A DNA stretch of 59,409 nucleotides from Candidatus Xenobia bacterium (GTDB lineage Bacteria; Vulcanimicrobiota; Xenobia; Xenobiales; QWHO01): positions 1 to 59,409 of the forward strand of contig BTUM01000049.1 in NCBI GenBank assembly GCA_045863235.1, written 5' to 3'. Under the pieces are notes generated by a model. It saw only the letters and a program-made list of their open reading frames with translations, did not search any database and had not been told where the DNA came from. Shown here in pieces: positions 8,709-58,699 of the stretch. How positions within the stretch are numbered: the first letter of the stretch is position 1; the number at the start of each line of letters is the position of its first letter. A program made the position numbers and the translations under genes.

Positions 8709-8942
8709 TCAGGGAACCGTCTCTACCACCGCTGGCGGCGGCGTGGGCGGGTGCATGTGACGCAGGATCAGCCCCACGTTGCACCCGGCCAGATAGACCA
8801 GCAGCCCGATGGCGATGGAGACCACCAGGCCTGGCTTCCTGGGCGTGGCCTGGGCCCAGTAGGGCTTGGAGCAGTGCTCGCAGGCGGTGCTCGAGGAAGG
8901 GTTCTGGCCGCCGCAGTTGGGACAGGTGATCGATTCGCTCAT
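8709..8942 (-). CDS. Small zinc-ribbon membrane protein
   Basis: MSESITCPNCG...CEHC, then one TM helix; GGGAGG RBS. Confidence 0.75.
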   Translation of the reverse strand: MSESITCPNCGGQNPSSSTACEHCSKPYWAQATPRKPGLVVSIAIGLLVYLAGCNVGLILRHMHPPTPPPAVVETVP

Positions 8943-8960
8943 CAGGGCCTCCCGGTCAGG

Positions 8961-9506
8961 ATGCATGCTCTGTCGCCAGAGGCGGGCGCCTTCTTCCCGA
9001 CGAAATCCGGCCAGGTGAGACTGTTCCCCCTCCAGCCCGAGCACGCCGGGGCGGTGGCCCGCCTGGCTGACCATCTCTATCCTTCGGGCTTTCCGCTGGA
9101 CGCCCTGGCCATCGCCGAGAACCTGGCCCGGCTGACCCCCGAGGAAAGCTACTGCTACGGCGTGGAGGTGGACGGGGAACTGGTGGCCTTTATGATGGCC
9201 TGGCTGGACACCAGCCAGGTGGAGGGGTGGGAGGAGCAACAGGTGGTGCTGGTGGACGACCTGTGCGCCCTCCCCAGGCACCGTCGCCACACCTACACCT
9301 TGCTGCGCAAGCTCGATCTCGAGCTGTGCGCGCGAGGCGTGCAAGGCATTCCGCTGGAGGGGACCCATCGGCTCGAGGCCGACCGGCTCTTCACCGAGCA
9401 TGCCGCTGTGGTGCGCCGACTGGGCTATGAGCGGGTGGCTCAGCACACCTTCGACTCCGAACACGGCGAGCGGTTGGTCTGGACGCGTTACGAAGGGGTC
9501 AGGTGA
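8961..9506 (+). CDS. GNAT-like hypothetical protein (start uncertain)
   Basis: 3' part of ORF 7971-9506; GVEVDGELVAFMMA, VLVDDLCALP, RRLGYE. Confidence 0.6.
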   Translation: MHALSPEAGAFFPTKSGQVRLFPLQPEHAGAVARLADHLYPSGFPLDALAIAENLARLTPEESYCYGVEVDGELVAFMMAWLDTSQVEGWEEQQVVLVDDLCALPRHRRHTYTLLRKLDLELCARGVQGIPLEGTHRLEADRLFTEHAAVVRRLGYERVAQHTFDSEHGERLVWTRYEGVR

Positions 9507-9606
9507 GCTGACAGACCTGCTCGAGCTTCCTCAGAGCCTCGAGAATCGACTCCAGAGACTCCAGGTAGGTGGGGTCTTCTTGCTCCAACTGCTCTGCAGG
9601 CGCCAT
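9499..9606 (-). CDS. 35-aa acidic small protein
   Basis: Manual translation MAPAEQLEQEDPTYLESLESILEALRKLEQVCQLT*; GAAAGGA RBS. Confidence 0.6.
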   Translation of the reverse strand: MAPAEQLEQEDPTYLESLESILEALRKLEQVCQLT

Positions 9607-9711
9607 CGGTCTTGTCCTTTCAGAAGTATCGTTACGGATAGAACCCGGTCGGTCTGAAAAAAAACTGAAGTGAATTTAATTCAATGACCGAGAGGGTGAC
9701 TCCTGCCCGGC

Positions 9712-10890
9712 TCACCGGCGTAGCCAGTCGAGAGCCAGGGCGGCCGTCCAGGTAAACTGGCTGGCCCCCAGCCCCTCCCCGGTCAGCGGGTTGAAGTACT
9801 CACGGAACCCGCTGCGCTCGATCAGCTCCAGAGTGCGCTCCTTCAGCCCCGGCAAAGAGTCTGCCAACAGCCAGTTGACGTTGACCCAGGTAGGCCCGCG
9901 CCAGTAGCGCACGGGGTCGAACTCGGGGTGGTCGGGCGCGGTCGAGGGCAGAGGCCATTCGGTCCAGTAGCTTTCCCGCAGCCGCTGCAGGACCTGGGAC
10001 CGGACCGGCAGGTCGAGCATGGCCGGCAGGTAGGCTCCCACCACGTCCGCCTCCAACCGCTGGCCGGCTGCCGCGTCGTAGAACGAGAAGCGCTCCAGAT
10101 CGGGGTTGTAGAGCTTGCTCATGAGCCCTGCCTTGAGCCTCGCGCCCCGCCCGCGCTCGAGGCCGGCGTAGTCGAGCCGGTCGGCCAGCCACTCCAGGTC
10201 TTCCTCGGCCCGGGCCAGGATGGCGGTCATCATCGGGTCGTAGACGGCCAGAGGCCCCGGGCCGAAGTCCGAGTCGGCAATCTCCTTGACCAGCACGGCG
10301 TAGCGCTTGTAGTGATCGTCGGTGGGCCGCTGGGACGGATCCCCCACCCGCTCTTTGTCCACCCGCTTGAAGGGAGGTGCCTTGGCGGGGTCGATGGCCG
10401 CCATGGCGCGATCCCAGGCGGGGCTGTTGTCCAGGCCGCTCTCCCAGGGGTGCACCACGGCCACAGCGCCATACCCGAGCGGGTCGCGGGAGGCCCCAAA
10501 GAACCGGTGCGAGCGGTCGAGCGCTTCGAGCAGGGCGCGCACGCGAGCCGGGTCGGCTCCCAGTTCGAACAGACGGCGGGCTGCGCTGGCCCAGACCGGG
10601 GGCTGGGTGATGGACGAGCGGTCGCGGGTTCCCCAGAACTCTGGCCCCGGAAAGTAGTCGTCGCTCAGTTTGTGAAAGCGGATGTGCGGGATGCGCCCGT
10701 CCTCCCACTGGCCCTGCATCAAGAGCTCGAGCTCGGTCACGGCCCGGTCGAGGTCGATGTGGGCCCAGCCGATGGCGGCGAAGGCCGAGTCCCAGGCCCA
10801 CTGGTGGGGGTAGAGGCGGGGCGAGGGCACGGTGTAGCCACCCCGGTCGTTGGCGCGTAGAAGGTCGATGCAGGCTCGTTCGAGGCTCAT
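9712..10890 (-). CDS. GH63/MGH1-like glycoside hydrolase (glucosylglycerate/mannosylglycerate hydrolase family)
   Basis: YPHQWAWDSAF, TQPPV, HPWESGLDNSPAWD, YWRGPTWVNVNW, GFREYF, FTWTAA. Confidence 0.9.
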   Translation of the reverse strand: MSLERACIDLLRANDRGGYTVPSPRLYPHQWAWDSAFAAIGWAHIDLDRAVTELELLMQGQWEDGRIPHIRFHKLSDDYFPGPEFWGTRDRSSITQPPVWASAARRLFELGADPARVRALLEALDRSHRFFGASRDPLGYGAVAVVHPWESGLDNSPAWDRAMAAIDPAKAPPFKRVDKERVGDPSQRPTDDHYKRYAVLVKEIADSDFGPGPLAVYDPMMTAILARAEEDLEWLADRLDYAGLERGRGARLKAGLMSKLYNPDLERFSFYDAAAGQRLEADVVGAYLPAMLDLPVRSQVLQRLRESYWTEWPLPSTAPDHPEFDPVRYWRGPTWVNVNWLLADSLPGLKERTLELIERSGFREYFNPLTGEGLGASQFTWTAALALDWLRR

Positions 10891-44329: not shown

Positions 44330-45334
44330 TCAATCCTTTTGAGGGGCCGTGGGGTCGGGCAGGAAGCGGTAAGCGGCGGGCGCGATCAGCATGTATTCCC
44401 GGCGGATCTCTTGAGCTTGCTGGGCTTGCTCGCGTCGCTTGACCAGCTTGTAGGTGCTGACGGCTCCCACGGTGGCCCCGATGCCGGCCATGACGGCGGC
44501 ACCTTTCCAGCCGGCCACCAGGCCGATCGGGCCCAGCATGAGCGCGCCCGAGGCAGCCCCGGCGAGCATCTTGCCGCGCGTGGTCAGAGGGTGCTTCTCC
44601 AGCCAGGGATCGAGCCGCTTGTTGATGGCCAGCGTCAGATCTTCGGTGGCGTTGCGCTGCACCTGGCGCAAGCTGGGCCCGGCCAGTGAGCCGACCGAGC
44701 CGAGCACGGCTCCCACCAGCGCTCCCTGCGCCACGTTTCCGCCCATCAGGCCCGCCACAGCCCCGGCGCCGGCTCCGGTGAGCACTCCCAGCACGGCCCG
44801 CCCGGCCGGAGTGACGGCCCGTCCGGCGGCTCCGGCGCCGGCCGCTCCCGCGATGACCATGGCCGGGTTGCCTGTGGCGACGAAGGCCAGTCCGCCTGCC
44901 AGCATCCCTCCGTAGACGCTGTCCCGGGTGGCCGCTCGACGACTGCCCGACAGGGTGCCCACCGCGCCGGTGAAGGCCCCCATGACGGCCGGTCCGATCA
45001 GGAATTGGGGCGGAAGCATCACCCCCGACATGGCCGCCAGCCCGGCCGTGGCAGCGGCTGCGACGCCCGCTCCCACCAGGGCCCCGGCGCCCAGGGCCAC
45101 GCTGAAAGAGCCGCTCTTCTCGCCGATCTTCACCCCGGCGTAGCCACCGATCAGGCCGGCGGCAGCTCCGGTCGGGCCCCCGGTGATGTAGCCCTGGATG
45201 CCACCTGCAATAGCGGCTGAAATGGGGGATGGACCGGCCAGATCACCGCCCGTGGTGGGCCGGGGCCGAGCATAGTCGCGCACTTTCCCCAGAAATCCGG
45301 GGACGGCGGCGGGTTTGGCAACGGCGACTTGCAT
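44330..45334 (-). CDS. Glycine-zipper-rich membrane protein
   Basis: Many GxxxG(A) hydrophobic segments; MQVAVAKP N-terminus. Confidence 0.85.
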   Translation of the reverse strand: MQVAVAKPAAVPGFLGKVRDYARPRPTTGGDLAGPSPISAAIAGGIQGYITGGPTGAAAGLIGGYAGVKIGEKSGSFSVALGAGALVGAGVAAAATAGLAAMSGVMLPPQFLIGPAVMGAFTGAVGTLSGSRRAATRDSVYGGMLAGGLAFVATGNPAMVIAGAAGAGAAGRAVTPAGRAVLGVLTGAGAGAVAGLMGGNVAQGALVGAVLGSVGSLAGPSLRQVQRNATEDLTLAINKRLDPWLEKHPLTTRGKMLAGAASGALMLGPIGLVAGWKGAAVMAGIGATVGAVSTYKLVKRREQAQQAQEIRREYMLIAPAAYRFLPDPTAPQKD

Positions 45335-46148: not shown

Positions 46149-46709
46149 TTATCCGAGCATGGTGCGGATGTTGCCCGCGCCGGCCATAGCGAAGGCTCCG
46201 GTGCCGTTCACCCCGGCGAACGCCGCGGCGCCGTTGCCGACCTGGCCGACGGTGTTGAACCCGCCGACGTTGCCGGCGAAGTTCTGGACGCCGTTATTCT
46301 GACTCTGGCCCAGGCCCCCCGAGGCCGCCAGGCCCATCCCCAGGCCGGCGCCGAACGAGAAGGCCTGCTGGGCGTTGTTGCCGCCGAAGGCGGGGTTCAT
46401 GTTGGAGGAGAGCATGTTGTTGCCCCCCTGAATCCCGAACGGGTTCTGCTTCTGGCCACAGGCGCCACACTGCTGCCCCTGCTGGCCCATCATCCCCTGC
46501 ATCATGCCCTGCATCTGCGCCATCATCTGCTGCATCTGCTGCATCATCTGCTTCATCTTTTTCTTCTTGCCGCCGCCGCAGCACTTCTTGCCGCCACCGG
46601 GGCCGCCGGGGCCGCCGCCACCCTTGAGGCTGCCAAGCAGACCGGCGATATCTCCCAGGCCGCCGCCGCCACCCATCGCTCCACCCACCAGATTCTTGAT
46701 CATATCCAT
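46149..46709 (-). CDS. Low-complexity Gly/Gln/Met/Asn-rich protein
   Basis: GAGGAG RBS; MKQMMQQMQQMMAQMQGMM; own terminator. Confidence 0.85.
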   Translation of the reverse strand: MDMIKNLVGGAMGGGGGLGDIAGLLGSLKGGGGPGGPGGGKKCCGGGKKKKMKQMMQQMQQMMAQMQGMMQGMMGQQGQQCGACGQKQNPFGIQGGNNMLSSNMNPAFGGNNAQQAFSFGAGLGMGLAASGGLGQSQNNGVQNFAGNVGGFNTVGQVGNGAAAFAGVNGTGAFAMAGAGNIRTMLG

Positions 46710-46937
46710 CGTGGGGTCTCCTCTCGGTTCGGACCGTTTCTGGCCGGTCCACTGTTACACCCATCATAAGGACCTGACCCGGCCATGCATGCCTTGCATG
46801 TGTTTCCGATTTGTAAACGTTGTGAACTGGAAGTAACGCTTTGTTGCCGACTCTTTGACAATTGGAAACATCTTGCTGCAACCCTAGACGCGCCGAAGAG
46901 AAGGGGGATACACGCACCTCGGCCGAAAGCGCCGCCG

Positions 46938-47597
46938 ATGACTGCAGCAGAGATTCTCGATCAGCTCGACGCCGCCGCGGCCAGTTGCAACTGGCCAATC
47001 CTCGAGAATGTGAACGTGGACATGGCCTCGGTGCGGCTGCACGCCTACGGGGACGGTGCCCGCTGGGCCCTGGTGATGGAAGTGCTGGGCACCAATATCG
47101 GGGCCGGTCCGAGCTCGATCCACACGACTTTGTACTCCTACGGGAATTGCCTCAAGTCCAGCGAGACGCTCTCATTGGTTCTCAGCGCCGACGTGGGGCC
47201 GGCGCTGGACAAGTACACCGGTGAGCTCAGGTCGGATGGCTACATCCTGGTGCGGGGCCGGCGGGTTGCCGTCGAGCTTTCGCCCGCCACCCTGGAACGG
47301 CTCGAGATTCAGCCGCGCTTCTCCGAGCCGGGAGACTTCGAGCTGCTGCTGACCCTGCTGAGCGAGCACCGCGAGGCCCTGCTGGCCTCCCGCGAGGAGC
47401 TGGCCGAGGTCGTTCCCGCCGACATGCCCGAGCTGCTGCTGCTGGAGGAGTGGAATCACCCCCGCGTCAACGAGAAGCCGAGCGACACGGAGACCTTCCG
47501 CCTGTTGGCCCAGGTGCTGGCCACGGGCGGGGCCGAGCACTGGCGGCCGCTGACCGCTCCCAATACCGACTGGCGCCACTGGATCGAGGGAAAGTAG
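46938..47597 (+). CDS. DUF7003-like protein
   Basis: EILDQLD...RLHAY....WALV.E.LG ... LEEWNHP...PSDTETF..LA.VLATG ... PNTDWRHW. Confidence 0.65.
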   Translation: MTAAEILDQLDAAAASCNWPILENVNVDMASVRLHAYGDGARWALVMEVLGTNIGAGPSSIHTTLYSYGNCLKSSETLSLVLSADVGPALDKYTGELRSDGYILVRGRRVAVELSPATLERLEIQPRFSEPGDFELLLTLLSEHREALLASREELAEVVPADMPELLLLEEWNHPRVNEKPSDTETFRLLAQVLATGGAEHWRPLTAPNTDWRHWIEGK

Positions 47598-47615: not shown

Positions 47616-48020
47616 TCAATCAGGTTCGATGCGGGTTAGCCCGGGCACGTCGTCAAATCCACGGTCGAAACTCACCACATATTCGATCTGGTGGTTGAGC
47701 ATCACCGCCGCGTGAACCGCATCCCTCGCCGATAGCCCGAGATCGGAAAGAATGAGGTCGCGGGCCCGGTCGGTATCAGCAAGAGTCACAGGAAGCACCT
47801 CCGGACAGACAACCACGAAGAGGTCGTAGACGGTGCGCGCCAGGTCCAACCTGTGCAACGCGGCGTAGCGATAGAGAATCTCTTGGAGAACCTCGGTGCT
47901 GGTGGCGCTCTCGACCTCGCCACGCTGGACGCGCTCGAGGAAGCGTCGAGACGGAAGGCGATTGGGATGCTCTCGTCCGGCCACGTACATCGGGATGTTC
48001 GAATCGATGAAGACCTTCAC
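47616..48020 (-). CDS. vapC: VapC PIN-domain toxin
   Basis: FIDSNIPMY, EVLQEI, LSARDAVHAA, SFDRGFD. Confidence 0.92.
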   Translation of the reverse strand: MKVFIDSNIPMYVAGREHPNRLPSRRFLERVQRGEVESATSTEVLQEILYRYAALHRLDLARTVYDLFVVVCPEVLPVTLADTDRARDLILSDLGLSARDAVHAAVMLNHQIEYVVSFDRGFDDVPGLTRIEPD

Positions 48021-48247
48021 GAACGACCCGATTCGATCTCCGCCAGCATTTGCTCGATGTCACCCGTTGGCGCTTCCAGAGAAGCCAGGCGAGCCACCGG
48101 GTCGAAGCCCGACTGCTGACCCCGGCTGAGCGCCTCCTGCAGAGCGCGCCGGACCCACTCTCCCCGCGAAATCCCCAGCCTCTGCGCAGCCTTGCGTACC
48201 TTCCGGTCCAGATCGTCGGGAATGATGACCTGCAATCGGTGACTCAT
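48017..48247 (-). CDS. vapB: RHH/CopG antitoxin
   Basis: RLQVIIPD...ISRGEWVRRAL; 4-bp overlap with the toxin gene. Confidence 0.88.
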   Translation of the reverse strand: MSHRLQVIIPDDLDRKVRKAAQRLGISRGEWVRRALQEALSRGQQSGFDPVARLASLEAPTGDIEQMLAEIESGRS

Positions 48248-48253
48248 AGGAGT

Positions 48254-48283
48254 ATGATAATGGGAGACATGTCGGATGGTCAA
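48254..48283 (-). promoter_or_regulatory. Leaderless TA promoter with palindromic operator
   Basis: TTGACC-N18-TATCAT-N6-ATG; GACATGTC in the spacer. Confidence 0.7.
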
Positions 48284-48360
48284 GGCGCCGAACCTCGCTG
48301 AACTGCAACCCGGGAGCTTCTCCAGCGAGAAGAGCGCAAGTCACGCAGGCAAGCAAGCAA

Positions 48361-48387
48361 AAGAGCCACCCTCGAGGGTGGCTCCTT
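48361..48387 (-). terminator. Terminator of the four-gene glycine-zipper operon
   Basis: GAGCCACCC-TCGA-GGGTGGCTC with a T-run on the minus strand. Confidence 0.85.
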
Positions 48388-48407: not shown

Positions 48408-50027
48408 CTACTTGCGCTTGTCGCGCTCGCACTGCTCCACGCGGGCCTCGCGGCGCGCGAGATCGTACTTGCGTGACTCCACCTGGCTGCGCTTGGAGTT
48501 GACTTCGCCCTGCAGGCTGGTCACGTCGGGCCGGATCGAGTCGGCCTCGCGCTCCTTGCGGTCGGCTTCGCTGCGCTCGCTGCGCGCCGCCGACTGGATG
48601 CCCGGGATGGCGGCCATATCGGCCATCGCCTGGCTGCGCAGGCGGTCAGCCTGGCTCTCCATGTTGCGGGCGTTGTCGCGGCGCTGCTCGAGGTCGCGGC
48701 GCAGGGGGGCCAGGGTCTTTTCGACCTTCTCGGCCACCACTTGCGGGATCTGCTGCTCGGCGCGGTCCAGGTCGCGGTCGCGGCTCTCGAGCTGGCCCTT
48801 GCGGGTCTGGTACTGGCCCTCGAGCTTGCCCTCGAGGTCCTTGTACAGCTTCTCCTGGCGCTCGTCGATGTAGCGGTCGATGTCGGCCCGCTTCTGGTTG
48901 ACCCGGGCGTCCTCGGCCTCGAGGTGCTGCTGGCGCTGGTTCTGGCCGGCTTCCCGCTCGACCAGGCCCTGTTTGGTCGTGTTGTAGAGGTTCTGAGCGC
49001 GCTGCTCGACCAGCTCGTCCACCCGGGCGTTCTTGTCGGCGATGCGCTCGTTCTGGGTCTTGAGGGCGTCCTCGCGCCGGTCGAGCTCTTCGGTGCGCTC
49101 GGCGTGATTCTCGCGGGCGTCCAGGCGAGCCTGCTCGAGGCCCTTGCCGTACTGGTCGAGCTGGGCGGCGTTCTGGGTGAGACGGTTCTCCTTCTCGTCG
49201 AGCTCCATCCACTTGCGGCTGTTGTGGGCGCCGTCCACCACGGCGGTGGCGCCGTGACGCAGGGCCTTGACGGCCAGGTAGCCGCCGATGCCGCCCGCCA
49301 CGAGCATGATGCCGCCGCCGATGAGGGCGCCGGTGCCGGCCGTGGCAGCCACGGTCGCCAGGCTGAAGTTGCCGCTGACCAGGCCGGAGAGGGCGCTGCC
49401 TGCAGCGGTGATGCCGCCGCCCATGGCCATTCCACCCACGCCGCCTGCCAGGGCGCCCATGCCGGACACCACGGTGCCGACCACGCGCAGCGGGCCTTTG
49501 AGGGGCAGCAGCTTCTTCTGCTCGCCCGGCTGCCCGGCATCAGGATCCTCACCGGCCAGCTTCTTACCGATCCAGCGCATCCCCTTGGCGGGCACGCCGG
49601 CCACGCTCTGACCCAGGGCCCAGCCGCCGGCAAGGCCGGTGGCTCCGCCGATGACCATGCCGACCTTGGCGCCGATGGCGGTGGTGGTCCAGGCCGCGCC
49701 CAGGAAGCCCATCACGCCGCTGGTGGTGGCCGAGGCCACGATCGGGCCGAGTCCGCCGCCCAGAGCCGCGCCCACCAGGGCGCCGCCCACCACGCCGGCG
49801 TAGACCGTGGCGATACCCGCCGCCAGGGCGACCCCGCCGCCGATGGCCAGGTCCCAGTTGTTGCTCGCGCCGATCAGGCCGCGTCCGAGCTCTTTGCGAA
49901 CCCGGCCGCCGAAGCCGTCCTTGGGCTCTTCCGTGGCGGGAGGATTTGGATTCTCGGCCGGAGGAGCGCTGTTGGCCGCGCTGAGAGTGTTGTAGTTAAA
50001 GGGTTTGGGAGCAACGCTGACTTGCAT
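48408..50027 (-). CDS. Glycine-zipper membrane domain + long coiled coil (paralogue 3)
   Basis: YAGVVGGA.VG...G.GP..A......GFLG..W.....AKVGM.IGG; charged heptad C-half; GGAGG RBS. Confidence 0.9.
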   Translation of the reverse strand: MQVSVAPKPFNYNTLSAANSAPPAENPNPPATEEPKDGFGGRVRKELGRGLIGASNNWDLAIGGGVALAAGIATVYAGVVGGALVGAALGGGLGPIVASATTSGVMGFLGAAWTTTAIGAKVGMVIGGATGLAGGWALGQSVAGVPAKGMRWIGKKLAGEDPDAGQPGEQKKLLPLKGPLRVVGTVVSGMGALAGGVGGMAMGGGITAAGSALSGLVSGNFSLATVAATAGTGALIGGGIMLVAGGIGGYLAVKALRHGATAVVDGAHNSRKWMELDEKENRLTQNAAQLDQYGKGLEQARLDARENHAERTEELDRREDALKTQNERIADKNARVDELVEQRAQNLYNTTKQGLVEREAGQNQRQQHLEAEDARVNQKRADIDRYIDERQEKLYKDLEGKLEGQYQTRKGQLESRDRDLDRAEQQIPQVVAEKVEKTLAPLRRDLEQRRDNARNMESQADRLRSQAMADMAAIPGIQSAARSERSEADRKEREADSIRPDVTSLQGEVNSKRSQVESRKYDLARREARVEQCERDKRK

Positions 50028-50039
50028 GACACTTCCTCC

Positions 50040-51116
50040 TTAGATGGTCCGACGCAGGACGTTGAGTGCGACGCCGATTCCGACGCCGGCGATGCCGCCC
50101 ACGACGACGCCGCCCACCAGGCCGCCCACCAGGCCGAAGCGGCCGTCTTGCTGCACCTGGACTTCATTCTTGTCGACCTCGGGACGCCCGAAGAACCCGG
50201 TCTTGGGAACGTCGCGCTCGATGTTGACGGTACCGGGCGTGTTGCCGCCGTTGGCGGACAGCGCGCTCTTGAAGTAGTCGGAGGGGATCTGGCCGAGCAC
50301 GCGGTGCTCGGTGACCGGGGTCTCGGTGTTGTAGCTCTGGCTGATGGCGTTGTTGGACTCCATCAGGCCGTTGAGCAGGCCCACGCCGCCGCCGATCACC
50401 GCGCCCACGGCGCCGGTCTTGATCAGAAGCTGGGTCTCACCCTTCACCTCGCGGCGCTCGTGCTCCTCATAACCCTGGCCCACGGCCTTGCGGCCGACGG
50501 CGATCAGGGCTCCCAGGCCGGCGCCCACGCCCATCCCGATGCCCAGTCCGACCAGGCCGCTGGTCAGCGGCGAGCCGCTGCCGGGGGTCTTGATCTCGTG
50601 GCTGCGCTGGGTGTACTCCCCGATGCGCTCCTGGGTGATGCTGGGGGTGTGGCGCACGTCCCAACCCACCAGCTCGCGGGTGGTGCCCACCTGCTGGCCG
50701 CTGGAGTTGAACACGGGCTGCTCGTCGTAGCGGGGCACCTCGACGAAGGTGGAGCCGGTCAGCTTCTCGCTGAAGATGGGCACCTTCGTCTCGCTGACGA
50801 CGACTTCGGGCCGGGCCACGGCCGAGGTGATCAGGCTGTCGGCGATGCCAAGGCCGCCGCCGATGGCTCCACCCACGCCGGCGCCCAGCATGATCAGCTC
50901 GGCGTTCTTGAAGTTCTTGAGGGCCGGAGGACGCAGCTTGGTGTCCTCGTCGATGCGGTCGAGGTCGCCCTTGACCTTGCCCAGACCGTCCTCGATGCGG
51001 CCGTAATCGCGATCGATGTCACCGGCCGGCTTGCCGGCCAGGGCATCCTCGGAGGCGGCACCAACCACGTTGGTGCGCACCCAACTGTTGACTCTGGAAG
51101 CGACAGTTCCCAACAT
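50040..51116 (-). CDS. Glycine-zipper protein with beta-rich soluble inserts
   Basis: Four GxxxGxxxG segments; AGGAGG RBS. Confidence 0.88.
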   Translation of the reverse strand: MLGTVASRVNSWVRTNVVGAASEDALAGKPAGDIDRDYGRIEDGLGKVKGDLDRIDEDTKLRPPALKNFKNAELIMLGAGVGGAIGGGLGIADSLITSAVARPEVVVSETKVPIFSEKLTGSTFVEVPRYDEQPVFNSSGQQVGTTRELVGWDVRHTPSITQERIGEYTQRSHEIKTPGSGSPLTSGLVGLGIGMGVGAGLGALIAVGRKAVGQGYEEHERREVKGETQLLIKTGAVGAVIGGGVGLLNGLMESNNAISQSYNTETPVTEHRVLGQIPSDYFKSALSANGGNTPGTVNIERDVPKTGFFGRPEVDKNEVQVQQDGRFGLVGGLVGGVVVGGIAGVGIGVALNVLRRTI

Positions 51117-51129
51117 TCTCGTGCTCCTC

Positions 51130-52710
51130 CTAAATCCCGCAAGCCCGCTCGCGGGATGCGATATTGGCTTCCTTACCGTCGAGTTGACGGTCCTGGGCTT
51201 CCAGGTTGCGAAGTTGCGAGCCCAGCTGGGCCCGGGCGTTGGTGAGGCGGTTGACTTCGGCCTCGGCCTGGCGGCGCTGGCTCTGGGCCGAGCTCAGCTC
51301 GGACTGGGCCTGGGCCCGCTGGCCCGAGGCGATGCTGGCCTCGGACTGAGCCTGGCGCATCCGGTCGCTGGCCCGATCCTCGTCGCGGCGAGCGTCGGAG
51401 ATCTCCGACTCGAGCTGGCTCTTCTTGGGAGCCAGGTCTTGCTGGTAGCGGCGCTCGGTCTCGTTGGCGATGTCGCTCTCACGACGGTCGAGACGGTCCT
51501 TGTACTGGTCGAGCTGGCCCTGCAGGCCCTGGTAGTGCTGCTCGAGCGCGGGGCGGCGGCCGGCGAAGATCTTGTCCGACTCGGAGACGATCTCGCGGTC
51601 GATCTGCGCCTCGCGGGCCTCGATCTCACCCTGGAACTGGTTCTGCTGGCCCTCGCGGGTATCCAGGCGACCCTTCCAGTCGCGCAGGTCCTGCGAGCGC
51701 TCGTGGAAGGCGGCCTGGCCGCGGGTCTCGATGGTGTCGTCAATCTGCTTCTCGCGCCCGTTGGCGTCCTTCTCGCGCTCTTCGATGTCGCGCTCGCGGG
51801 TGTCCAGGCGGGCTGTCTCCTGCTGGTGGAAGGCGCGGTCGGCCACGGCCACCTGGGCCAGATCCGACTGCTTCTTCTTGAGCTCTTCCTCGAGCTTCTC
51901 CAGGCGCTCTTCCTTCAGGGCCAGGTCTTCGGTCTCACCGGTCTTGTCCCACAGCTTGGATACCTTGTCGCCCACCCAGCTGGCCGCGTTGATGGTGCCC
52001 TTGGCGATGGTCAGAGCGCCCGCCCCGACCACCAGGCCCATGGCGCCGGCGCCGATGGCTCCGCCGATTCCGGCCGCGCCCAGCACCGAGGCTCCGCTCA
52101 GGCCCTGGCCGAGCAGGCCGCTGATGGTGGCGCCGCCGGCGGCGACCGAGCCGCCGATGACCGCGCCGCCCACCAGGCCGCCCAGGGCACCCGTGCCGGC
52201 GATGACCCGTCCGGCCACTCCCTTGGCGCCCGTGAAGGCTTTCAGGTCGGAGGGCTTGCCGGGCTCTTGCTTGTCGGCCCCGAGCAGGCGGCCGGCGGCG
52301 TTGCCGAAGCTGGTGCCGGTCTTCCAGGCGCCCACGATGCCGCTGGCGCCCCCGATGAACATGCCCACTTTGGCGGCCGAGAAGCCGGCGTTCCACACGC
52401 CGCCCAGGAAGCCCAGGGCGCCGTTGGTGCTGACCGAGGCGATGGCCGGGCCGATGCCGGCTCCGAACAGACCGCCCACGATGGCGCCGCCGAGCACGCC
52501 GGCGTACATGGCCGGGATGGCCAGGGTCAAGAAGCCCACGCCCCCGATGGCCAGGTTGATGGCGTTGCCGAACTCGCTGCCCTGCTTGGGCTCCTTCTCA
52601 CCGCTGAGGGTGAACGACTCCTGCGGGCCGGCCGCGACCGGAGCCTGGTACTGGTTGTAGAGCCTGCCGACCGACTGGGGGGCGGCGGGGGCCAGGGTGC
52701 TTACATTCAT
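51130..52710 (-). CDS. Glycine-zipper membrane domain + long coiled coil (paralogue 2)
   Basis: GSEFGNA, MYAGVLGGA motif; coiled coil; C-terminal Cys. Confidence 0.9.
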   Translation of the reverse strand: MNVSTLAPAAPQSVGRLYNQYQAPVAAGPQESFTLSGEKEPKQGSEFGNAINLAIGGVGFLTLAIPAMYAGVLGGAIVGGLFGAGIGPAIASVSTNGALGFLGGVWNAGFSAAKVGMFIGGASGIVGAWKTGTSFGNAAGRLLGADKQEPGKPSDLKAFTGAKGVAGRVIAGTGALGGLVGGAVIGGSVAAGGATISGLLGQGLSGASVLGAAGIGGAIGAGAMGLVVGAGALTIAKGTINAASWVGDKVSKLWDKTGETEDLALKEERLEKLEEELKKKQSDLAQVAVADRAFHQQETARLDTRERDIEEREKDANGREKQIDDTIETRGQAAFHERSQDLRDWKGRLDTREGQQNQFQGEIEAREAQIDREIVSESDKIFAGRRPALEQHYQGLQGQLDQYKDRLDRRESDIANETERRYQQDLAPKKSQLESEISDARRDEDRASDRMRQAQSEASIASGQRAQAQSELSSAQSQRRQAEAEVNRLTNARAQLGSQLRNLEAQDRQLDGKEANIASRERACGI

Positions 52711-52741
52711 CTTGCTTGACCTTCCTCCCGATTCCTAACTC

Positions 52742-53539
52742 TTAAGCTGCTTTGGTGCTCGCGCCCGGGGGCGGGGTGGGCTGCTGCACCGGGGGCTTGT
52801 CCTGCGGCGTCAGCTTGTCGACCAGGCGGGCGGCCGTCTTGGCCACCTTGTAGCCGCCCATCATCCCCATCGCGCCGAAGGCCACCAGGCCGATGCCGCC
52901 GCCGATCAGGGCGGCGCTGCCCATGTTGCTCATGGCCGCCATGTTGAAGCCGTTGAGGGTAAGGCCGTGGATCAGGCTGCCGGCCGAGGCCACCGAAGCG
53001 CCCAGGATGCCGCCGCCCACTCCGCCGGCCAGGGCGCCGCCACCCACGGTGATGGCGCCGATGGTGCCCTTGATGGGGCCGGTGATCTTGACGTGCTTGC
53101 TGGGGTCTTCCTTATCCGCCCCGAACAGGCGTCCCACGGCGTTGCCGATGCCGGTGCCGGTGGCCCAGCCGCCCAGGAGACCGCTCACGCCGCCCAGCAC
53201 CATTCCCGCCTTGGCGACGGTGGAGGTGCTCTGCCACACCGTTCCCACCATCCCCAGGAACCCGTTGCTGGTCACCGCTCCGGCGATGGGGCCGAAGCCC
53301 AGGCCGAGCATCGAGCCCACCACGGCGCCACCGATGACGCCGGCATACATGCAGGGGATGATGAGCGCCAGGGCGCCCACTCCACCAACGCCCATCTTGA
53401 CGGCGTTGCCGAACTCGCTCCCCTCACTGAGTTGAGCCTGGTCTTGCGGGGCAGCCTGGCTCTCGGTCTGAGGGGCCAGGGACTGGCTGGCCCGGGTGTA
53501 GGGGGCCAGGCTTGGCGCGGTGGCGGCGGTGACGTTCAT
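52742..53539 (-). CDS. Glycine-zipper membrane domain only (paralogue 1)
   Basis: GSEFGNA, MYAGVIGGA, GRLFGADKE shared with 51130-52710; GGGAGG RBS. Confidence 0.9.
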   Translation of the reverse strand: MNVTAATAPSLAPYTRASQSLAPQTESQAAPQDQAQLSEGSEFGNAVKMGVGGVGALALIIPCMYAGVIGGAVVGSMLGLGFGPIAGAVTSNGFLGMVGTVWQSTSTVAKAGMVLGGVSGLLGGWATGTGIGNAVGRLFGADKEDPSKHVKITGPIKGTIGAITVGGGALAGGVGGGILGASVASAGSLIHGLTLNGFNMAAMSNMGSAALIGGGIGLVAFGAMGMMGGYKVAKTAARLVDKLTPQDKPPVQQPTPPPGASTKAA

Positions 53540-53567
53540 GGATTCCTCCCGTGTTTGTTGCGTCAGC

Positions 53568-53616
53568 ACCATAAGCGGTCGGGCAAGTCGGATTGGTAAA
53601 CGTTGTATGAACGTCA
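53568..53616 (-). promoter_or_regulatory. Promoter of the glycine-zipper operon
   Basis: TGACGTTCATACAACGTTTAC-N22-TATGGT; similar boxes at 22134 and 46806. Confidence 0.55.
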
Positions 53617-53680
53617 CGCCAAAGAACTTTCAGCTTCCTTTAAGAAACAAATTTGTAATGCCCGTAACGACGCCATCCGT

Positions 53681-53712
53681 TTCACCCATTTTTCAGCCGG
53701 GGGGGGTAGAGT
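53681..53712 (+). promoter_or_regulatory. Direct-repeat promoter with G8 tract in the spacer
   Basis: TTCAC-N6-TTCAG-N10-TAGAGT. Confidence 0.65.
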
Positions 53713-53774
53713 GGCCATGGGCGACGGGGTTTTTCCCCCCGATCCCGAACATCACGAGCACGATGGAGCCGAAC

Positions 53775-56700
53775 ATGGACGCCACCCGCATCACCGCCAA
53801 CACGACCAGCGCCTTCAGCGCCCCCACCCGCAGCGCGGGACAGGACGAAGACCCCCACAAAGGGGTGAAGGAGAAGTTCGAGTGGAGCGGCCGCCCGACG
53901 GCCGGTGAATCGGGGAGCTTCCAGCCTCAGGCCCAGCAGGCCCAGACGGCCGCCCCGTCGGTCCAGACCGAGACGGCCATCGCGATGAAGGCCCCTCCGG
54001 GCGCGCGCAAGAGCGAGGACCTGGGCGTGGTGACCGTGCTCGACGCGGCCTCCGTGGCTCCTGGAGCCGACCTGATTCAGGCCGAGGAGAGCCGCACCTC
54101 CGAGGCCCAGACTCGCAACTGGGCCGACATCGGCAAGAAGGTCGGCCTGGTGGTGCTGGGCGGTCTGGCAGTAGGCGTGCCCCTGGCGATGCCGGCCGTG
54201 GCCCAGGCGGCTCCGGCCCAGGTGGCCACCCAGCAGCAGGTCAACAGGGACGTCGCCCCGGTGCATGTCGGCAGCCTGCAGGACGTGGTCAACCAGTACA
54301 ACGGCACGCGCCCCTTCTTCGTGGTCGGCACCCCCAAGATCAACGGCACCGCCCTCAGCCAGAACGAGATGCGCGAGTTCCAGCAGGTGCTGCGCGAGCA
54401 CCCCAACACCGTGGTGGTGCTCGTCGAGAACACCAACAACGAGGATGCCGACAACACCCTGATCGGGCGCGGCATCGGCAACAACCCCGCCTTCCAGAAC
54501 ATCAAGAACGCCCAGACCGGCGAGGGCGAGGGCGTGATGCTGGTCATCTACTTCGCCAACCGGGGCGACGCCAGCGATCGTCCCATCTTCTACCGGGCCG
54601 GCGACCTGGCCGACCGCCTCAACGTGGGCGAGGCCAACTGGGCCGCCCCCGACCACTCGCCGCGCGAGCTGATGCGCACCTTCATCAACGCCTTCCGCAA
54701 CGAGGGTCGCAGCCTGGCCGGCTCGGTGGACGCCGTCTTCGACCAGGTCAACGGTACCATCGCCCGCGAGGTGCAGGCCCAGGTGGGCAACGCCCAGCAG
54801 AACGTGAGCGCCGCCCAGTCGGCCCTTAACGGCGTGAAGCCCAAGGTTACCCAGTTCCAGCAGCGCCACGGCTCGGGCGGCACCATCGGCAGCCCGGACG
54901 TGAACAGCTGGCAGCAGCAGCTCACCACCGCCCAGCAGCAGCTGGCTAACCGCGACTTTGCGGGAGCGACCCGCACCGCCAACGCCCTGGTCCAGACCAT
55001 CCGCGGTCACGAGACCCTGATGGCCAACTACGAGGCCGCTCCCGGCGTGGCCAGCCAGGTCGAGGCCCAGATTCAGCAGCTGCAGCAGCAGATCCAGAAC
55101 CTGCCCGACAACAGCCAGGCCCAGAGTGCCCGGGCCTCCTTCGAGCGGGCTCAGAGCGAGCTGCAGCAGTTCCGTAACGACCACTCCGCCAAGAGCCCCG
55201 GCTTCCAGCAGCACCTCGACGCCGCCAAGTCGGCTGCCGCCGAGGGCCTCTCTCAGGCCCAGAGCTCCAAGGACACGGCCGCCCGCAACGAGGCCATCCG
55301 CAACTACGGAGCCGCGGCCGGCGCCATCGCCATCCTGGTCACCGGCATCATCCTCAACGTCCGCGCCCGCGGCGCTCGGAAGGCTGCCGAGGCCGAGTAT
55401 GAAGAAGCCATCAACGAGATCGGCAAGAAGTCGCACGAACTGCTCGAGCTGATGAACGAGGCCGACTACCACAAGGTGGCCAACTACGAGGGCAAGACCA
55501 AGGAAGTGGCCGACGCCCTGATGGCCAATGTGGTGGACGCCCTCACCCTGGTGGGCGGCGCCGAGAAGTTCGCCAACGAGGCCAAGAGCCTGATCGACGC
55601 CGGCGGCTTCGGGCGCGTCAAGAACTGGTTCACCACCGGCAACTTCAAGAAGGCCGAGCGGTTGCTCACTGACCCCAACGAGAAGCTGACCTTCAGCTTC
55701 ACCGACAGCTCCCGCAAGGTGATCGAGAAGGACTCGCAGGCCGCCACCTGGCGCGAGGAGCTGCTCAAGCGGGGCACCAGCCGCGAGTTCACCCAGTCGC
55801 TGCAAGAGATCTTGCTGGCGATGGCCGACAACCGCGACGAGGCGAAGGGACAGCTGGCCGAGCTCGACAAGAAGGGCTCCGAGATCAACACTTATATCCA
55901 GCGCGTGGACGACGCCTCGGCCGCGGCCTTCAAGAAGGCCACTTCGCTCAAGGCGGGCGAGTCCTTCGCCGCTCCCGAGGCCAAGGTGGCCGTGCAGGCT
56001 GCCTCGCGCGCGGTGGTGGCCGAGGCCGCCCAGGACAGCGATGAGAAGTATCCCAACCTGTCGGCCGACCAGCTCCTCAAGCGCTCGGCCTTCCCGGCCG
56101 CGGCCGGCGACGCGTCTTTCACGGCCCCGGCGGTGGTCGACAACCTGCTGCCGATGGTGCGCGGCTCCAAGGCCGAGGGCGGCCTGCTGGCCAAAGGCCG
56201 CGAGCTGGCCGACCGCAACTTCATCACCGCCTGGGACGACTATGCAACTCCCGCCGAGCGCATGACCAACGAGGCCACCCAGATCATCGACCTGGGCGTG
56301 GACACCCGCACGGGCCTCTTGCAGACCCTGGGCGCGGCCGACAGCTTCCTGCACGCCAATCAGGTCAAGACCGACTGGGCCCACGCCACCAAGGACAAGC
56401 TCTCGGGCCGTCTCAACGAGGCCGCTAACAAGGCGATGCGCACCTCGGCCGCCGACGACATCAAGCAGATCGGCAGCGAGATTCAGGCCCTCGAGGCCCG
56501 CGTCGAGCGCGTCGTGGAGCAAGACTACGAGCGCCGCGAGATCTCGCCCAAGCTGATCGCCGATGCCGAGGCCGACGTCACCAAGACCCGTCAGGAGCTG
56601 TGCGACCAGCTGCAGAAGTTCGGCGTCTTCAAAGGCGGCAAGCCGGAAGAAGTGCTCGTCGAGCCGCAGCGCAACCCCACCGACCGCACCAAAGCTTCTC

Positions 56701-57944
56701 ACGACAACCTGGCCAGGGTGAAGCCGCAGCTCGACACCGGTAACATGGAGAAGGCCGGCGAGCACCTGGGCAACATCCGCGACCTGACCGACGAGGCTCA
56801 CGACCTGGTGGCCCAGAGCCGCGCGGCCGTCAAGAGCTACCACGGCACTCTGGAGGAGCGCCAGAAGCGCACCACCAAGACCACCGACAGCATTGCCTCG
56901 ACCTACCAGCCCTCCTTCGACCGCATCAAGTCGACTTACGCCGCCGCCTGCCAGCAGCTGATCGCCGCCGAGGTGGGCGCGGGCGACACCATCGGGGACA
57001 ACATCGCGCAAGCCCGGGCCGACATCAAGAAGGCCGAAGGCGAAACCGCCGACGGCATCAAGAACTTCGACCGCGCTTACGTGCTGACCTCACGCGACGA
57101 CCTCAACAAGGCCGATGCCAGCCTCAAGAGCGCACAGGCGCACCTGGACGGCATCACCAACGCCGAGAAGCTGCTCGGCCAGAAGCAGACCGCGGTGGAG
57201 GGCGAGCTGAAGACCCTCGAAGGCAACTACGCTCGCACCCGCTCCAACGCCGGCCAGGTGTTCGTGCGCTCGCAGGCCAAGAGCCTGCTGAGCCAGGGCG
57301 AGCAGAGCCTGCGCCAGGCTGGCAACGCGGTCAACGCCAAGCCCAAGAACCCGTTCGAGGCCAAGAATGCTCTGGGAGCCTCTGAGAGCATGCGCGGCCA
57401 GGTCGAGACGGCCATCGCGGCCGACAAGCGGGCTTACGACGCGGCCAACTCGGCCGTCTCCAGCGCTGAGAGCGAGATGTCCAGCGCCCGTGGCCAGATC
57501 ATGGCCTACGCCGCCGAGAGCTGGAGCTTCTCCAACCGCTGCGGCAGCGCCCGCAACTCGGTGGGTCAGGCGGCGGTGGCCGGTGCCCTGGTCTCGCTCG
57601 GCTCGGCCGAAGGCGACCTGCGCTCGGCTCGCACCCTCATCTCGGCTCAGCGCTACGAGGAAGCCGCCCAGGAAGCCCAGCAGGCCGAGCGGGCCGCCGG
57701 CAGCGCGGTGGGCCTGGCCGCAGCCGCGCGGGCTTCGGCTTACGCCTCGCATATGAGCGAAGTGCGTCGCCTGGAAGCCGAGGAGGACGCTCTCGAGCGT
57801 CGCGAGGCCGAAGAGCGTCGCCGGCAGGAGGAGGCCGAGGCGGCTCGCCGCCGGGCCAGCGAATCGAGTTCTTCGTCGGGCGGCTCCAGCGGCGGCTGGG
57901 GCGGCGGCGGCGGTGGGAGCGGCGGCTCAAGCGGCCGCTGGTAA
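53775..57944 (+). CDS. Giant (~1390 aa) protein: disordered N-extension, signal/TM, TPM-like domain, second TM, long helical region, Gly/Ser tail
   Basis: ATG 53775 after GGAG; VGLVVLGGLAVGVPLAMPAVAQA; AAAGAIAILVTGIIL; ends GGGGGGSGGSSGRW. Confidence 0.88.
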   Translation: MDATRITANTTSAFSAPTRSAGQDEDPHKGVKEKFEWSGRPTAGESGSFQPQAQQAQTAAPSVQTETAIAMKAPPGARKSEDLGVVTVLDAASVAPGADLIQAEESRTSEAQTRNWADIGKKVGLVVLGGLAVGVPLAMPAVAQAAPAQVATQQQVNRDVAPVHVGSLQDVVNQYNGTRPFFVVGTPKINGTALSQNEMREFQQVLREHPNTVVVLVENTNNEDADNTLIGRGIGNNPAFQNIKNAQTGEGEGVMLVIYFANRGDASDRPIFYRAGDLADRLNVGEANWAAPDHSPRELMRTFINAFRNEGRSLAGSVDAVFDQVNGTIAREVQAQVGNAQQNVSAAQSALNGVKPKVTQFQQRHGSGGTIGSPDVNSWQQQLTTAQQQLANRDFAGATRTANALVQTIRGHETLMANYEAAPGVASQVEAQIQQLQQQIQNLPDNSQAQSARASFERAQSELQQFRNDHSAKSPGFQQHLDAAKSAAAEGLSQAQSSKDTAARNEAIRNYGAAAGAIAILVTGIILNVRARGARKAAEAEYEEAINEIGKKSHELLELMNEADYHKVANYEGKTKEVADALMANVVDALTLVGGAEKFANEAKSLIDAGGFGRVKNWFTTGNFKKAERLLTDPNEKLTFSFTDSSRKVIEKDSQAATWREELLKRGTSREFTQSLQEILLAMADNRDEAKGQLAELDKKGSEINTYIQRVDDASAAAFKKATSLKAGESFAAPEAKVAVQAASRAVVAEAAQDSDEKYPNLSADQLLKRSAFPAAAGDASFTAPAVVDNLLPMVRGSKAEGGLLAKGRELADRNFITAWDDYATPAERMTNEATQIIDLGVDTRTGLLQTLGAADSFLHANQVKTDWAHATKDKLSGRLNEAANKAMRTSAADDIKQIGSEIQALEARVERVVEQDYERREISPKLIADAEADVTKTRQELCDQLQKFGVFKGGKPEEVLVEPQRNPTDRTKASHDNLARVKPQLDTGNMEKAGEHLGNIRDLTDEAHDLVAQSRAAVKSYHGTLEERQKRTTKTTDSIASTYQPSFDRIKSTYAAACQQLIAAEVGAGDTIGDNIAQARADIKKAEGETADGIKNFDRAYVLTSRDDLNKADASLKSAQAHLDGITNAEKLLGQKQTAVEGELKTLEGNYARTRSNAGQVFVRSQAKSLLSQGEQSLRQAGNAVNAKPKNPFEAKNALGASESMRGQVETAIAADKRAYDAANSAVSSAESEMSSARGQIMAYAAESWSFSNRCGSARNSVGQAAVAGALVSLGSAEGDLRSARTLISAQRYEEAAQEAQQAERAAGSAVGLAAAARASAYASHMSEVRRLEAEEDALERREAEERRRQEEAEAARRRASESSSSSGGSSGGWGGGGGGSGGSSGRW

Positions 57945-57983: not shown

Positions 57984-58406
57984 TCAGGGCAGAACGGTGA
58001 AGCCTTCTTGCATGGCGACCTGGCGCAGCCGGTGGTCCAGGCTGACCAGCTCGCGGCCCGCCGGTTGCTGCTCGCACCAGGCAAGCGAGGCGGCCAGTTG
58101 CAGCGAGTCGGCTGCGCGCAGGGGATAGGCAGCCACCAGTCGGTGAGCCATGAGGCGCACAAGCTCGGTCGGCTCGACCTGCTCGGCGCTTTGAAGCACT
58201 AATCGCAACGTCTCGCGCGCGAGCTGGAGCTCGTCGCCCGCCAGGGAGCCCTCGCGAAACCGTCGGTTGAGCGCGGAATGACATTCCACCGAGGTTCCCC
58301 ACCACAAGACGAGGCGCTCGTCTGACTCGAGCAGCGCCAGGCTTTCTGCGCGCCCCGGCTCGTCGAGCAGCAACGGGAGCACGGCGGAGGAGTCCCAGAA
58401 CCTCAC
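57984..58406 (-). CDS. vapC: VapC PIN-domain toxin
   Basis: MRFWDSSAVLPLL, VEC.SAL.R, LRAADSLQLAA, VSLDHRL. Confidence 0.92.
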   Translation of the reverse strand: MRFWDSSAVLPLLLDEPGRAESLALLESDERLVLWWGTSVECHSALNRRFREGSLAGDELQLARETLRLVLQSAEQVEPTELVRLMAHRLVAAYPLRAADSLQLAASLAWCEQQPAGRELVSLDHRLRQVAMQEGFTVLP

Positions 58407-58699
58407 CAGCCGTTCGCACGCTCTTGAAGGAGTGCCTCGACGACCGACTCGGAGGCGCGGGCCGCCCGCCGCCCCCGGAGCGCCTCGACCAGTGATTGTC
58501 CGTTGCCCGGCTTCAAGATACCGTCGCGATAGAGGCGCTCGAGCCGGGAGCCCTCCTGCTCGGGATCCGACTGGTAGGGAACCAGCTTTGCGATCGGTCG
58601 GCCTCGCTCGGTGACCAGCACTTCTTCCCCTGCCTTGACCAGGCTCAGATAAGCGCTCAGGGACGCTTTCAGGGTTGTGACCGAAGTGACTTTTTCCAT
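58403..58699 (-). CDS. vapB: Phd/YefM-family antitoxin
   Basis: SVTTLKASLSAYL..VKAGEEVLVTERGRPIAKLVP. Confidence 0.92.
   Translation of the reverse strand: MEKVTSVTTLKASLSAYLSLVKAGEEVLVTERGRPIAKLVPYQSDPEQEGSRLERLYRDGILKPGNGQSLVEALRGRRAARASESVVEALLQERANGW

Follow-up and report, generated by a model that had tools for sequence, protein, structure and literature searches.

Glycine zippers line the VacA and MscS-type channels; glycine-zipper pore toxins are expected to have an adjacent immunity gene, a dedicated secretion system, and a patchy, transfer-prone distribution; and ZorA of Zorya has a membrane motor or sensor with a long helical tail. The system analysed here, composed of the glycine-zipper operon A–B–X–C and a fifth gene G334 (Table 1), was found in the window (the whole 59,409-nt stretch of DNA analysed, contig C49) of an 8.36-Mb genome with 67% guanine-cytosine (GC) content and 97.6% completeness. 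The host was a large-genome member of Eremiobacterota (WPS-2), a phylum for which, to our knowledge, a single cultured species has been described and whose cell biology is largely unknown; the Atlas look-alikes of the gene A protein (scores 0.78-0.79) were labelled 'Candidatus Melainabacteria'. Judging from the sequences searched, the system was conserved only in some lineages of this phylum, and it had no match to a known protein family or fold (the fold models were of low confidence outside the inserts of X); it is tentatively read below as a scaffold of the cell's own inner membrane.

A, B, X, and C formed one transcribed operon, with intergenic gaps of 31 bp (A–B), 13 bp (B–X), and 12 bp (X–C), a GGAGG ribosome site ahead of the ATG of each gene, and a terminator stem (48363-48384) located 24 nt beyond the stop codon of C. 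The most likely start of A was at 53539, corresponding to M27 of a 291-amino acid (aa) open reading frame (ORF), with GGGAGGAATCC immediately before the ATG. The GC content at third codon positions (GC3) was 0.87-0.91 in the four genes and the divergent giant gene (see below), as in strongly coding sequences. An earlier note on this DNA had described an operon with its own promoter, gaps of 12-31 bp, and a terminal hairpin: the gaps and the hairpin were borne out, but a sigma-70 scan upstream of A found no site for the promoter. The stretch was present in eight RNA runs of at least six studies (sludge, bioreactor, wastewater, and soil). In run X18, a single 5231-nt RNA contig spanned 48357-53542 at 96.5% identity, extending from the terminator T-tract to just beyond the start codon of A, with only 7 and 42 letters left unaligned and with the flanks almost uncovered in the same run; RNA contigs stopped at 48401 and 53546 in run X7 and at 53546 in run X14, where the next one started at 53863. 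RNA contigs of three studies terminated at 53542-53546, while the DNA contigs of runs X1 and X3 crossed both operon ends, as did the RNA contigs of runs X4 and X12; the RNA contig ends were taken as a weak hint of transcript ends. There was good evidence that the four genes occurred together in RNA libraries, although contigs cannot prove a single transcript; window parts without RNA cover in single runs were not used as evidence.

A, B, and C were paralogues sharing a glycine-zipper domain of ~230 residues, across which B and C were 45% and 40% identical to A, respectively. Gly (20% in A) and Ala were abundant in the domain, and hydropathy placed the hydrophobic segments of A at residues ~43-91, 108-126, 160-196, and 201-233; the first such segment started at residue 72 in X and between residues 43 and 57 in the three paralogues, and hydropathy revealed no N-terminal Sec-type signal in any of the four proteins. 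Tandem GxxxG repeats were numerous in every subunit, Y65 and P84 were the only residues listed as conserved charged or polar ones in the membrane columns of the domain, and A had five Lys/Arg residues in a 33-residue loop and six in the 21 residues following its last hydrophobic segment. The arms of B and C (~280 residues) were 40-42% charged (40% Asp/Glu/Lys/Arg in the B arm) and almost without Pro, and the coiled-coil matches of gene B in Pfam and NCBIfam all stayed below threshold. The sole Cys was located at position 524 of 526 in B and 533 of 539 in C; of the proteins compared, 5/5 arm-bearing ones from families f1 and f3 had one Cys located 3-7 residues before the C-terminus, compared with 0/7 from families f2, f11, f13, and f17. 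The earlier note was thereby confirmed in describing one domain-only paralogue, two paralogues with charged coiled arms ending near a Cys, and no Sec signal in any of the four proteins. In the paralogue tree (all 17 rows of alignment A5), A nested within the B clade (support 98/98), and hence A is a copy derived from B and devoid of the arm; C-type genes constituted one clade within the order (99/97), in which C was paired with the C-like gene of genome G060, and paralogues clustered by genome in G016 (98/93) and G014 (100/100). Three lineages, with paralogues that clustered by genome, had a domain-only gene preceding an arm-bearing one; the pairing of arm-less with arm-bearing genes would have either arisen more than once or been homogenised by gene conversion between copies. 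Because of this recurrent pairing and the clustering of paralogues by genome, the sequences suggest repeated selection for mixed subunits.

X was composed of two repeats, and its halves occurred as separate genes in other lineages; its similarity to B was limited to 23-residue Gly-rich stretches (26.9 bits). The AlphaFold2 model of X (9 sequences) had a mean predicted local distance difference test (pLDDT) score of 49.8, with variation along the chain: (i) insert 1 (residues 105-172; pLDDT 78-91) was modelled as a two-stranded hairpin (strands 104-136 and 142-176; ~33 residues per strand), which had a tip of variable length among relatives and a polar sequence, not an amphipathic one as in a membrane stem; (ii) insert 2 (residues 262-320) had pLDDT of 64-89; and (iii) the parts outside the inserts had pLDDT of <50, the helices (~30-40) being left unplaced. 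A fourth, unrelated glycine-zipper protein with beta-rich inserts, as claimed earlier, was thus upheld, both inserts being modelled confidently and only Gly-rich runs being shared with B. N352 and K210 were the only conserved charged or polar residues in the membrane columns of X. The Foldseek search with the X model gave no match at E <=1e-3 and returned only generic long-hairpin or helical-hairpin rows, among which the weak matches of the hairpin were to aerolysin, anthrax protective antigen, and the FliF collar (all at E >=0.017); the best VIA score of the model (Z 5.8) concerned helices only. A predicted complex of three X copies (residues 66-358) scored 0.00 against a mark of 0.42, which, with controls not run, speaks neither for nor against oligomers. 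Four more X-like genes were found in the host genome (C39:24970-26088, C77:2714-3772, C64:34914-35810, and C4:82884-84170); they were Trp/Tyr-rich and located outside similar operons, and two of them had the beta-insert types in swapped order (circular permutation). A candidate second operon upstream of the X paralogue on C39 was rejected, its two ORFs being antisense frames of a plus-strand gene.

G334, overlooked in the earlier note, belongs to the same set as judged from its position and sequence: it was located ~3 kb from C in the window and directly followed the operon in distant relatives, and hhalign matched its N-terminal ~70 residues to the domain profile of A, B, and C (probability 94%, E 9.5e-8). 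A, B, C, and G334 shared an N-terminal module that starts with Met-x-Val/Ile, continues with a stretch rich in Pro and Ala and a P-x-D motif, and includes a first zipper ending in YAGV. G334 and one X paralogue matched Gly-zipper_YMGG (PF13441) at 21.9 and 18.9 bits, respectively, below the curated cut-off of 28.9 bits. A contig (CAYYHB010000193.1) with 99% identity to G334 was titled 'uncultured Burkholderiales bacterium' and was probably mis-binned or mislabelled.

The sequence comparison was extended to ten loci of relatives (tblastn plus ORF mapping; neighbours family-scanned at six of the ten), and the following gene orders were observed: (i) A-like (306 aa), B-like (641 aa), X (387 aa), and C-like (675 aa) genes and then a G334 relative, i.e., the window order, in G016 (family f13, 39% GC); (ii) A-like (276 aa), arm-bearing (533 aa), X (363 aa), and G334-like (333 aa) genes in G014 (f17); (iii) the domain split into 173 and 411 aa, then X, and then a G334-like gene in G007 and G020 (f11); and (iv) B, X, and C in G060 (f3), B, C, and X in G076 (f2), and C and X in G050 (f3). 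Further cluster forms were reduced clusters of X first half, X second half, and a G334-like gene in G002, G005, and G022; a cluster version with an arm-bearing half-domain protein in G035; and, in G010, a long G334-like gene adjoined by four X-like genes with circular permutation. The order A–B–X–C–G334 recurred at only 25-45% identity between unrelated neighbours, which settles in favour of the system the question of gene-order conservation raised earlier; the flanking genes differed at every locus and were unrelated housekeeping ones (EF-P, NFACT, PFOR, Na/H exchanger, and others). Sequence identity fell with decreasing kinship, from 84-99% inside the genus to 37-45% inside the order and 24-31% in other classes. 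No toxin, immunity, chaperone, or secretion genes were found beside the cluster at the ten loci (six of them with scanned neighbours), and neither hypervariable ends nor immunity-like small genes were seen there.

The distribution of the glycine-zipper domain, X, and G334 was determined in one shared sample of 401 genomes of the phylum (13 of them flagged unpublished and counted in tallies only), an absence meaning 'not found in those searched'. The domain was found in 36/401 genomes, X in 44/401, and G334 in 45/401; the corresponding counts were 1/297 (a weak match, E 4e-4), 0/297, and 0/297 in family f15, the largest one and probably that of the cultured member of the phylum by inference, and 0/30 each in family f20. 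The domain, X, and G334 were found in 4/4 genomes of f1, in 16/16, 15/16, and 16/16 of f3, respectively, in 2/2 of f11, and in 4-5/5 of f13; all three occurred in f1, part of f2, f3, part of f4, f11, f13, f14, f17, and f19, while X and G334 were also present in f7-f9 and f18, where the domain had no match. Genus g2, with genomes of 2.2-2.9 Mb, had 0/10 for each of the three. By list comparison, in which some matches are paralogues, 34 of the 36 domain-bearing genomes also carried X and G334.

Among 1,835,955,588 protein representatives searched by HMMER, the domain had 123 matches at E <=1e-3, 93 at <=1e-10, and 52 at <=1e-30; the 123 included domain-only, arm-bearing, and split-half forms and a few forms of 840-1482 aa, the latter containing no Pfam domain, and a PDZ fusion to the family was rejected as a chance match. 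Word-indexed searches returned 8, 15, and 34 clusters, all of hypothetical proteins and with Eremiobacterota or 'bacterium CPR1' as the only taxon names. In curated libraries, (i) nothing exceeded the thresholds of Pfam, NCBIfam, and PADLOC for the operon proteins; (ii) Pfam Gly-zipper_YMGG had no match in A, B, C, or X; (iii) PADLOC-DB 2.0 gave no match at E <=0.01 to the giant protein or any of the operon proteins, and G334 gave two very weak ones there (E 0.002-0.003, 14.6 bits); and (iv) PDB profile searches yielded no match with E below 0.015. In the Atlas, the model of A had pLDDT of 0.61 and structural neighbours at template modelling (TM) scores of <=0.40, below 0.5. These results agree with the earlier description of the system as a candidate undescribed one, the models being of low confidence outside the X inserts. 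Literature searches, consisting of listings apart from passages of PMC9259500, returned no paper linking Eremiobacterota with glycine-zipper or coiled-coil membrane proteins.

A lineage-specific scaffold complex in the cell's own inner membrane, with a structural or organising role, is put forward as the best explanation of these genes, and it is proposed tentatively, as a reading that is plausible if a little short of probable. In such a complex, a mixed bundle would be formed by the laterally packed Gly-x-x-x-Gly helices of all five proteins; X would place its two beta-rich inserts, one of them the long hairpin, in the periplasm; B and C would send their helical arms into the cytoplasm; A would supply armless subunits and thereby determine how many arms there are per membrane module; and the assembly would be a scaffold, and not a weapon, giving the membrane its organisation, shape, or stability or anchoring a cytoplasmic structure to the envelope. 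One multi-subunit assembly is likely because of co-transcription, the old gene order, the shared distribution, the shared N-terminal module, and the retained mixed paralogues; location in the cell's own inner membrane is suggested because signal peptides were not found, helices alternated with polar inserts in X, and Lys/Arg-rich stretches were present; cytoplasmic arms are favoured because these stretches flanked the last membrane segment and the central loop; and a structural role follows by exclusion because no enzyme domain, no conserved charge in membrane helices, and no toxin, immunity, or secretion context were found in the proteins and loci analysed. The earlier note had inferred a multi-subunit pore, translocon, or membrane-fusion apparatus for contact-dependent attack or host interaction; a multi-subunit membrane system agreed with the gene order, the co-occurrence, and the single RNA contig, but attack, a translocon, and host interaction found no counterpart in the neighbourhood (no toxin, immunity, chaperone, or secretion genes), in the kinship-like divergence, or in the export gate, which did not track the system (see below).

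A number of points weigh against a scaffold in the inner membrane: membrane insertion was predicted only from hydropathy, the segments being Gly/Ala-rich and no more than moderately hydrophobic; the helices of X were those left unplaced by AlphaFold2; conserved order proves co-regulation, not binding; the near-terminal Cys of the f1 and f3 proteins would better suit a disulphide outside the cytoplasm; the clustering of paralogues by genome could reflect gene conversion; and the scaffold is a default, chosen as the signatures of its rivals were missing and without a positive functional clue. Whatever its role, the system was expressed in natural communities, kept its order for very long in many larger-genome lineages, and had no relative in curated libraries. 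It is probably one of the envelope traits that define these lineages, and it provides an example, found in nature, of how glycine zippers in stacks can be combined with long coiled coils and a predicted periplasmic beta-hairpin; with few genes and clear operon boundaries, it lends itself to direct tests in a surrogate host.

A conducting pore in the cell's own membrane, in which the zippers line a channel, the X hairpins form a periplasmic collar, and the arms act as a gate, would fit the many tandem GxxxG repeats of each subunit and the weak Foldseek matches of the X hairpin to pore stems and ring collars; it is considered unlikely, since the conserved charged or polar membrane residues were limited to two in X and two in the domain, no fold match was significant, and the hairpin was polar and not amphipathic. 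A module protecting the membrane in stress or dormancy, with zipper proteins that resemble small envelope proteins induced by stress and arms that coat and stabilise the membrane in starvation or drying, is an improbable explanation: it draws on the sub-threshold Gly-zipper_YMGG matches of G334 and the X paralogue and on a gene for a long-form ribosome hibernation factor (Ribosomal_S30AE) located one to two genes from the reduced cluster at two of three loci scanned (L050 = G002:C18 and L052 = G005:C29, not G022), but G002 and G005 may have inherited this arrangement from a common ancestor, the searches did not recover the system in f15, and nothing in the expression results tied it to stress. 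Very improbable is an anti-phage or conflict system built like ZorA, in which a long helical tail extends from a membrane motor or sensor; the membrane domain with its long helical tail and the toxin-antitoxin genes flanking the region (47616-48283 and 58403-58699) would agree with it, whereas PADLOC matched neither the operon proteins nor the giant protein (and G334 only at the level given above), no nuclease, ATPase, or other effector gene was found, the presence was stable and kinship-following rather than patchy, and no membrane helix contained a conserved acidic residue.

The proteins might alternatively be exported, possibly via a flagellar-type type III gate, and inserted in the membrane of another cell, in the manner of Inc proteins or type III translocators, for predation or contact attack, which is judged less likely than a pore and less improbable than a stress module. 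The layout of hydrophilic N-terminus, paired hydrophobic helices, and coiled coil speaks for it, the shared N-terminal module of A, B, C, and G334 could be an export signal, and passages of PMC9259500 suggest that a related large-genome (marine) family of the phylum may be predatory, which keeps the idea alive and adds no direct evidence. The host also had an export core: an operon at C27:60753-67984, i.e., on a contig different from that of the cluster, contained FliM/N-type genes, FliP, FliQ, FliR, FlhB, and one full FlhA/FHIPEP gene, and the genome additionally contained two FliF-like genes and four genes for rod-type proteins; Flagellin_N had no match in this 97.6%-complete genome, which leaves two options, a highly divergent flagellin or a machine with no normal filament. 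FHIPEP matches were found in 10/10 system-bearing genomes checked (only C-terminal-part matches in G076, which was 85% complete), but they were also found in 364/401 genomes of the phylum, including 268/297 of f15 and 10/10 of g2, where the system was not found; because of this phylum-wide presence, the export gate does not track the system, and its copy number gave no signal, two full-length FHIPEP copies being common with and without the system. The check for export machinery, proposed earlier, thus recovered a type III core operon and no co-variation, and export through a flagellar-type gate is possible but not indicated by co-variation or gene neighbourhood. Against export there were further the lack of a chaperone, needle, secretin, or effector gene adjoining the cluster at the loci scanned, the four helices and two outward inserts of X, which fit a resident membrane protein, and divergence that was in line with kinship, without hypervariable ends or small genes of the immunity type. 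A more elaborate version, about as improbable as the stress module, would make the system the membrane-inserting arm of a contact-dependent apparatus, so far undescribed, of large-genome Eremiobacterota, with recognition of the N-terminal module, export by a flagellum-derived type III machine whose genome has no recognisable flagellin, Inc-like insertion in prey or partner cells, and the X hairpin as a collar.

Five copies of a stand-alone or fused FlhA/FHIPEP C-terminal cytoplasmic domain were found in the host besides the full-length gene (contigs C80, C3, C1, C106, and C107), and between 10 and 19 FHIPEP matches were counted in each of G060, G016, G035, and G050, which amounts to an unusual expansion of the docking domain of the type III export gate. 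Three tandem 81-aa ORFs with high GC3 and no Pfam match were located at positions 7987-9052 (minus strand) of locus L062 on C27, on the same strand as the export operon and beyond the two metabolic genes plus 104-aa ORF that follow FlhA.

The ~3-kb insertion between C and G334 contained a PIN/RHH toxin-antitoxin pair, a DUF7003 gene, the gene for a low-complexity Gly/Gln/Met protein, and a 200-aa gene; the genes of the insertion were found within the genus only. The low-complexity protein had no family match and was likewise found within the genus only. Toxin-antitoxin modules were present on both sides of the block composed of the operon and the giant gene.

The giant gene was divergent from the operon, and its product (numbered from 53520) was predicted to have a cytoplasmic head, a membrane helix at ~202-233, an outer part of ~360 residues, a second such helix at 592-619, a helical region of ~800 residues, and a Ser/Gly-rich tail ending in W. 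Counterparts with 93% and 64% identity were found at the same divergent position in two genomes of the same genus. The giant family, searched with the N-terminal 407 residues, was present in 14/44 genomes of the class (f1 3/4, f3 8/16, f2 0/19, and f4 2/3), with up to 11 matches per genome, a second host copy on C51, and most copies located away from the cluster. A 1391-aa giant-family gene lay directly upstream of two arm-bearing paralogues (602 and 564 aa) on the same strand in G060 (C6:512000-531999; L060, positions 2743-9878), and adjacency to the system was found only in this genus and at this locus of another family; genera g8 and g9 of f2 had the system without the giant family, and G040 had the giant family without the domain or G334. 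The association thus recurs once outside the genus and is not obligatory, and the giant gene is better regarded as a facultative neighbour than, as in the earlier note, the partner of the operon. Its supposed likeness to TPM proteins was not confirmed: TPM_phosphatase (PF04536; cut-off 22.1 bits) had no match in the giant protein or on this contig, all five host matches being on other contigs; hhalign against the host TPM proteins gave a probability of 0.2%; and AlphaFold2 of the outer part (alignment of 3 sequences) gave pLDDT of 30-40 and no confident fold. Weak Atlas leads to DUF5129/TPM (0.81-0.83) and the Ser/Gly-rich tail ending in W, common to the giant protein and two true TPM proteins of the host, point towards TPM, and the likeness is kept as a lead only.

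Table 1. Features of the glycine-zipper system and its surroundings in the window
Feature	Position	Strand	Description	Basis
Gene A	52742-53539	-	265 aa; glycine-zipper domain alone	ORF, start, identity, hydrophobicity, tree
Gene B	51130-52710	-	526 aa; glycine-zipper domain plus ~280-residue charged helical arm	ORF, identity, composition
Gene X	50040-51116	-	358 aa; N-terminal helix, four glycine-zipper helices, two beta-rich inserts	ORF, AlphaFold2
Gene C	48408-50027	-	539 aa; third paralogue with charged helical arm	ORF, identity, tree
Fifth member G334	44330-45334	-	334-aa glycine-zipper membrane protein	Synteny, co-distribution
Intrinsic terminator	48359-48384	-	9-bp GC-rich stem, 4-nt loop, TTTT on minus strand	
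Divergent intergenic region	53540-53762	.	Expected site of operon promoter and 5' leader, neither located	
Giant gene	53763-57944 (start uncertain, 53658-53775)	+	Facultative neighbour, not core part	
PIN toxin plus RHH antitoxin	47616-48283	-	Between C and G334	
DUF7003 protein	46785-47597	+	Inside genus-specific insertion	Pfam E 3e-52
Low-complexity protein	46149-46709	-	186 aa, 28.5% Gly; Gly, Lys, and Cys-Cys runs, then Met/Gln-rich stretch	
Phd/YefM-type antitoxin	58403-58699	-	Just beyond giant gene	

The system was finally compared with described ones. Chlamydial Inc proteins such as IncA were alike in the hydrophilic N-terminus, the pair of closely spaced hydrophobic helices, the long C-terminal coiled coil, and the lack of a Sec signal, but no match to them in sequence or fold was seen (no sequence search aimed at them was made), and the present proteins had at least four hydrophobic segments in the domain, old paralogues, and a four-helix X with predicted periplasmic inserts, and their host was a free-living bacterium of sludge and bioreactors with no type III chaperone or effector context. 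Translocators of type III secretion systems (IpaB/SipB/YopB) shared the combination of hydrophobic domain and coiled coil, whereas the genes here came without an adjacent tetratricopeptide repeat (TPR) chaperone or tip protein, without co-variation with the gate, and without a Pfam match. Glycine-zipper envelope proteins of the SlyB/OsmB class (PF13441) were alike in GxxxG runs, the nearest match being that of G334 (21.9 bits), but they are short lipoproteins with a signal peptide, while the proteins here were of 265-539 residues with neither lipobox nor signal. Compared to the glycine-zipper pore toxins CdzC/D, Tse4, and VacA, the system had no adjacent immunity or secretion genes and was distributed by kinship and not patchily. 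The neighbouring giant protein resembled TPM proteins (PF04536; YgcG-like layout) in its order of parts, i.e., helix or signal, outer domain, helix, and Ser/Gly tail ending in W, and differed from them in having no hidden Markov model (HMM) match, no confident fold, and ~800 extra helical residues. The core of the mitochondrial contact site and cristae organising system (MICOS), composed of Mic10 with its glycine-rich hairpin and Mic60 with its coiled coil, differed in that no homology was detected, the host here is bacterial, and no mitofilin domain was present, but it was alike in combining several small glycine-motif membrane proteins with coiled-coil subunits in one complex that shapes a membrane and was the nearest functional analogy to a membrane scaffold built from A, B, C, X, and G334.

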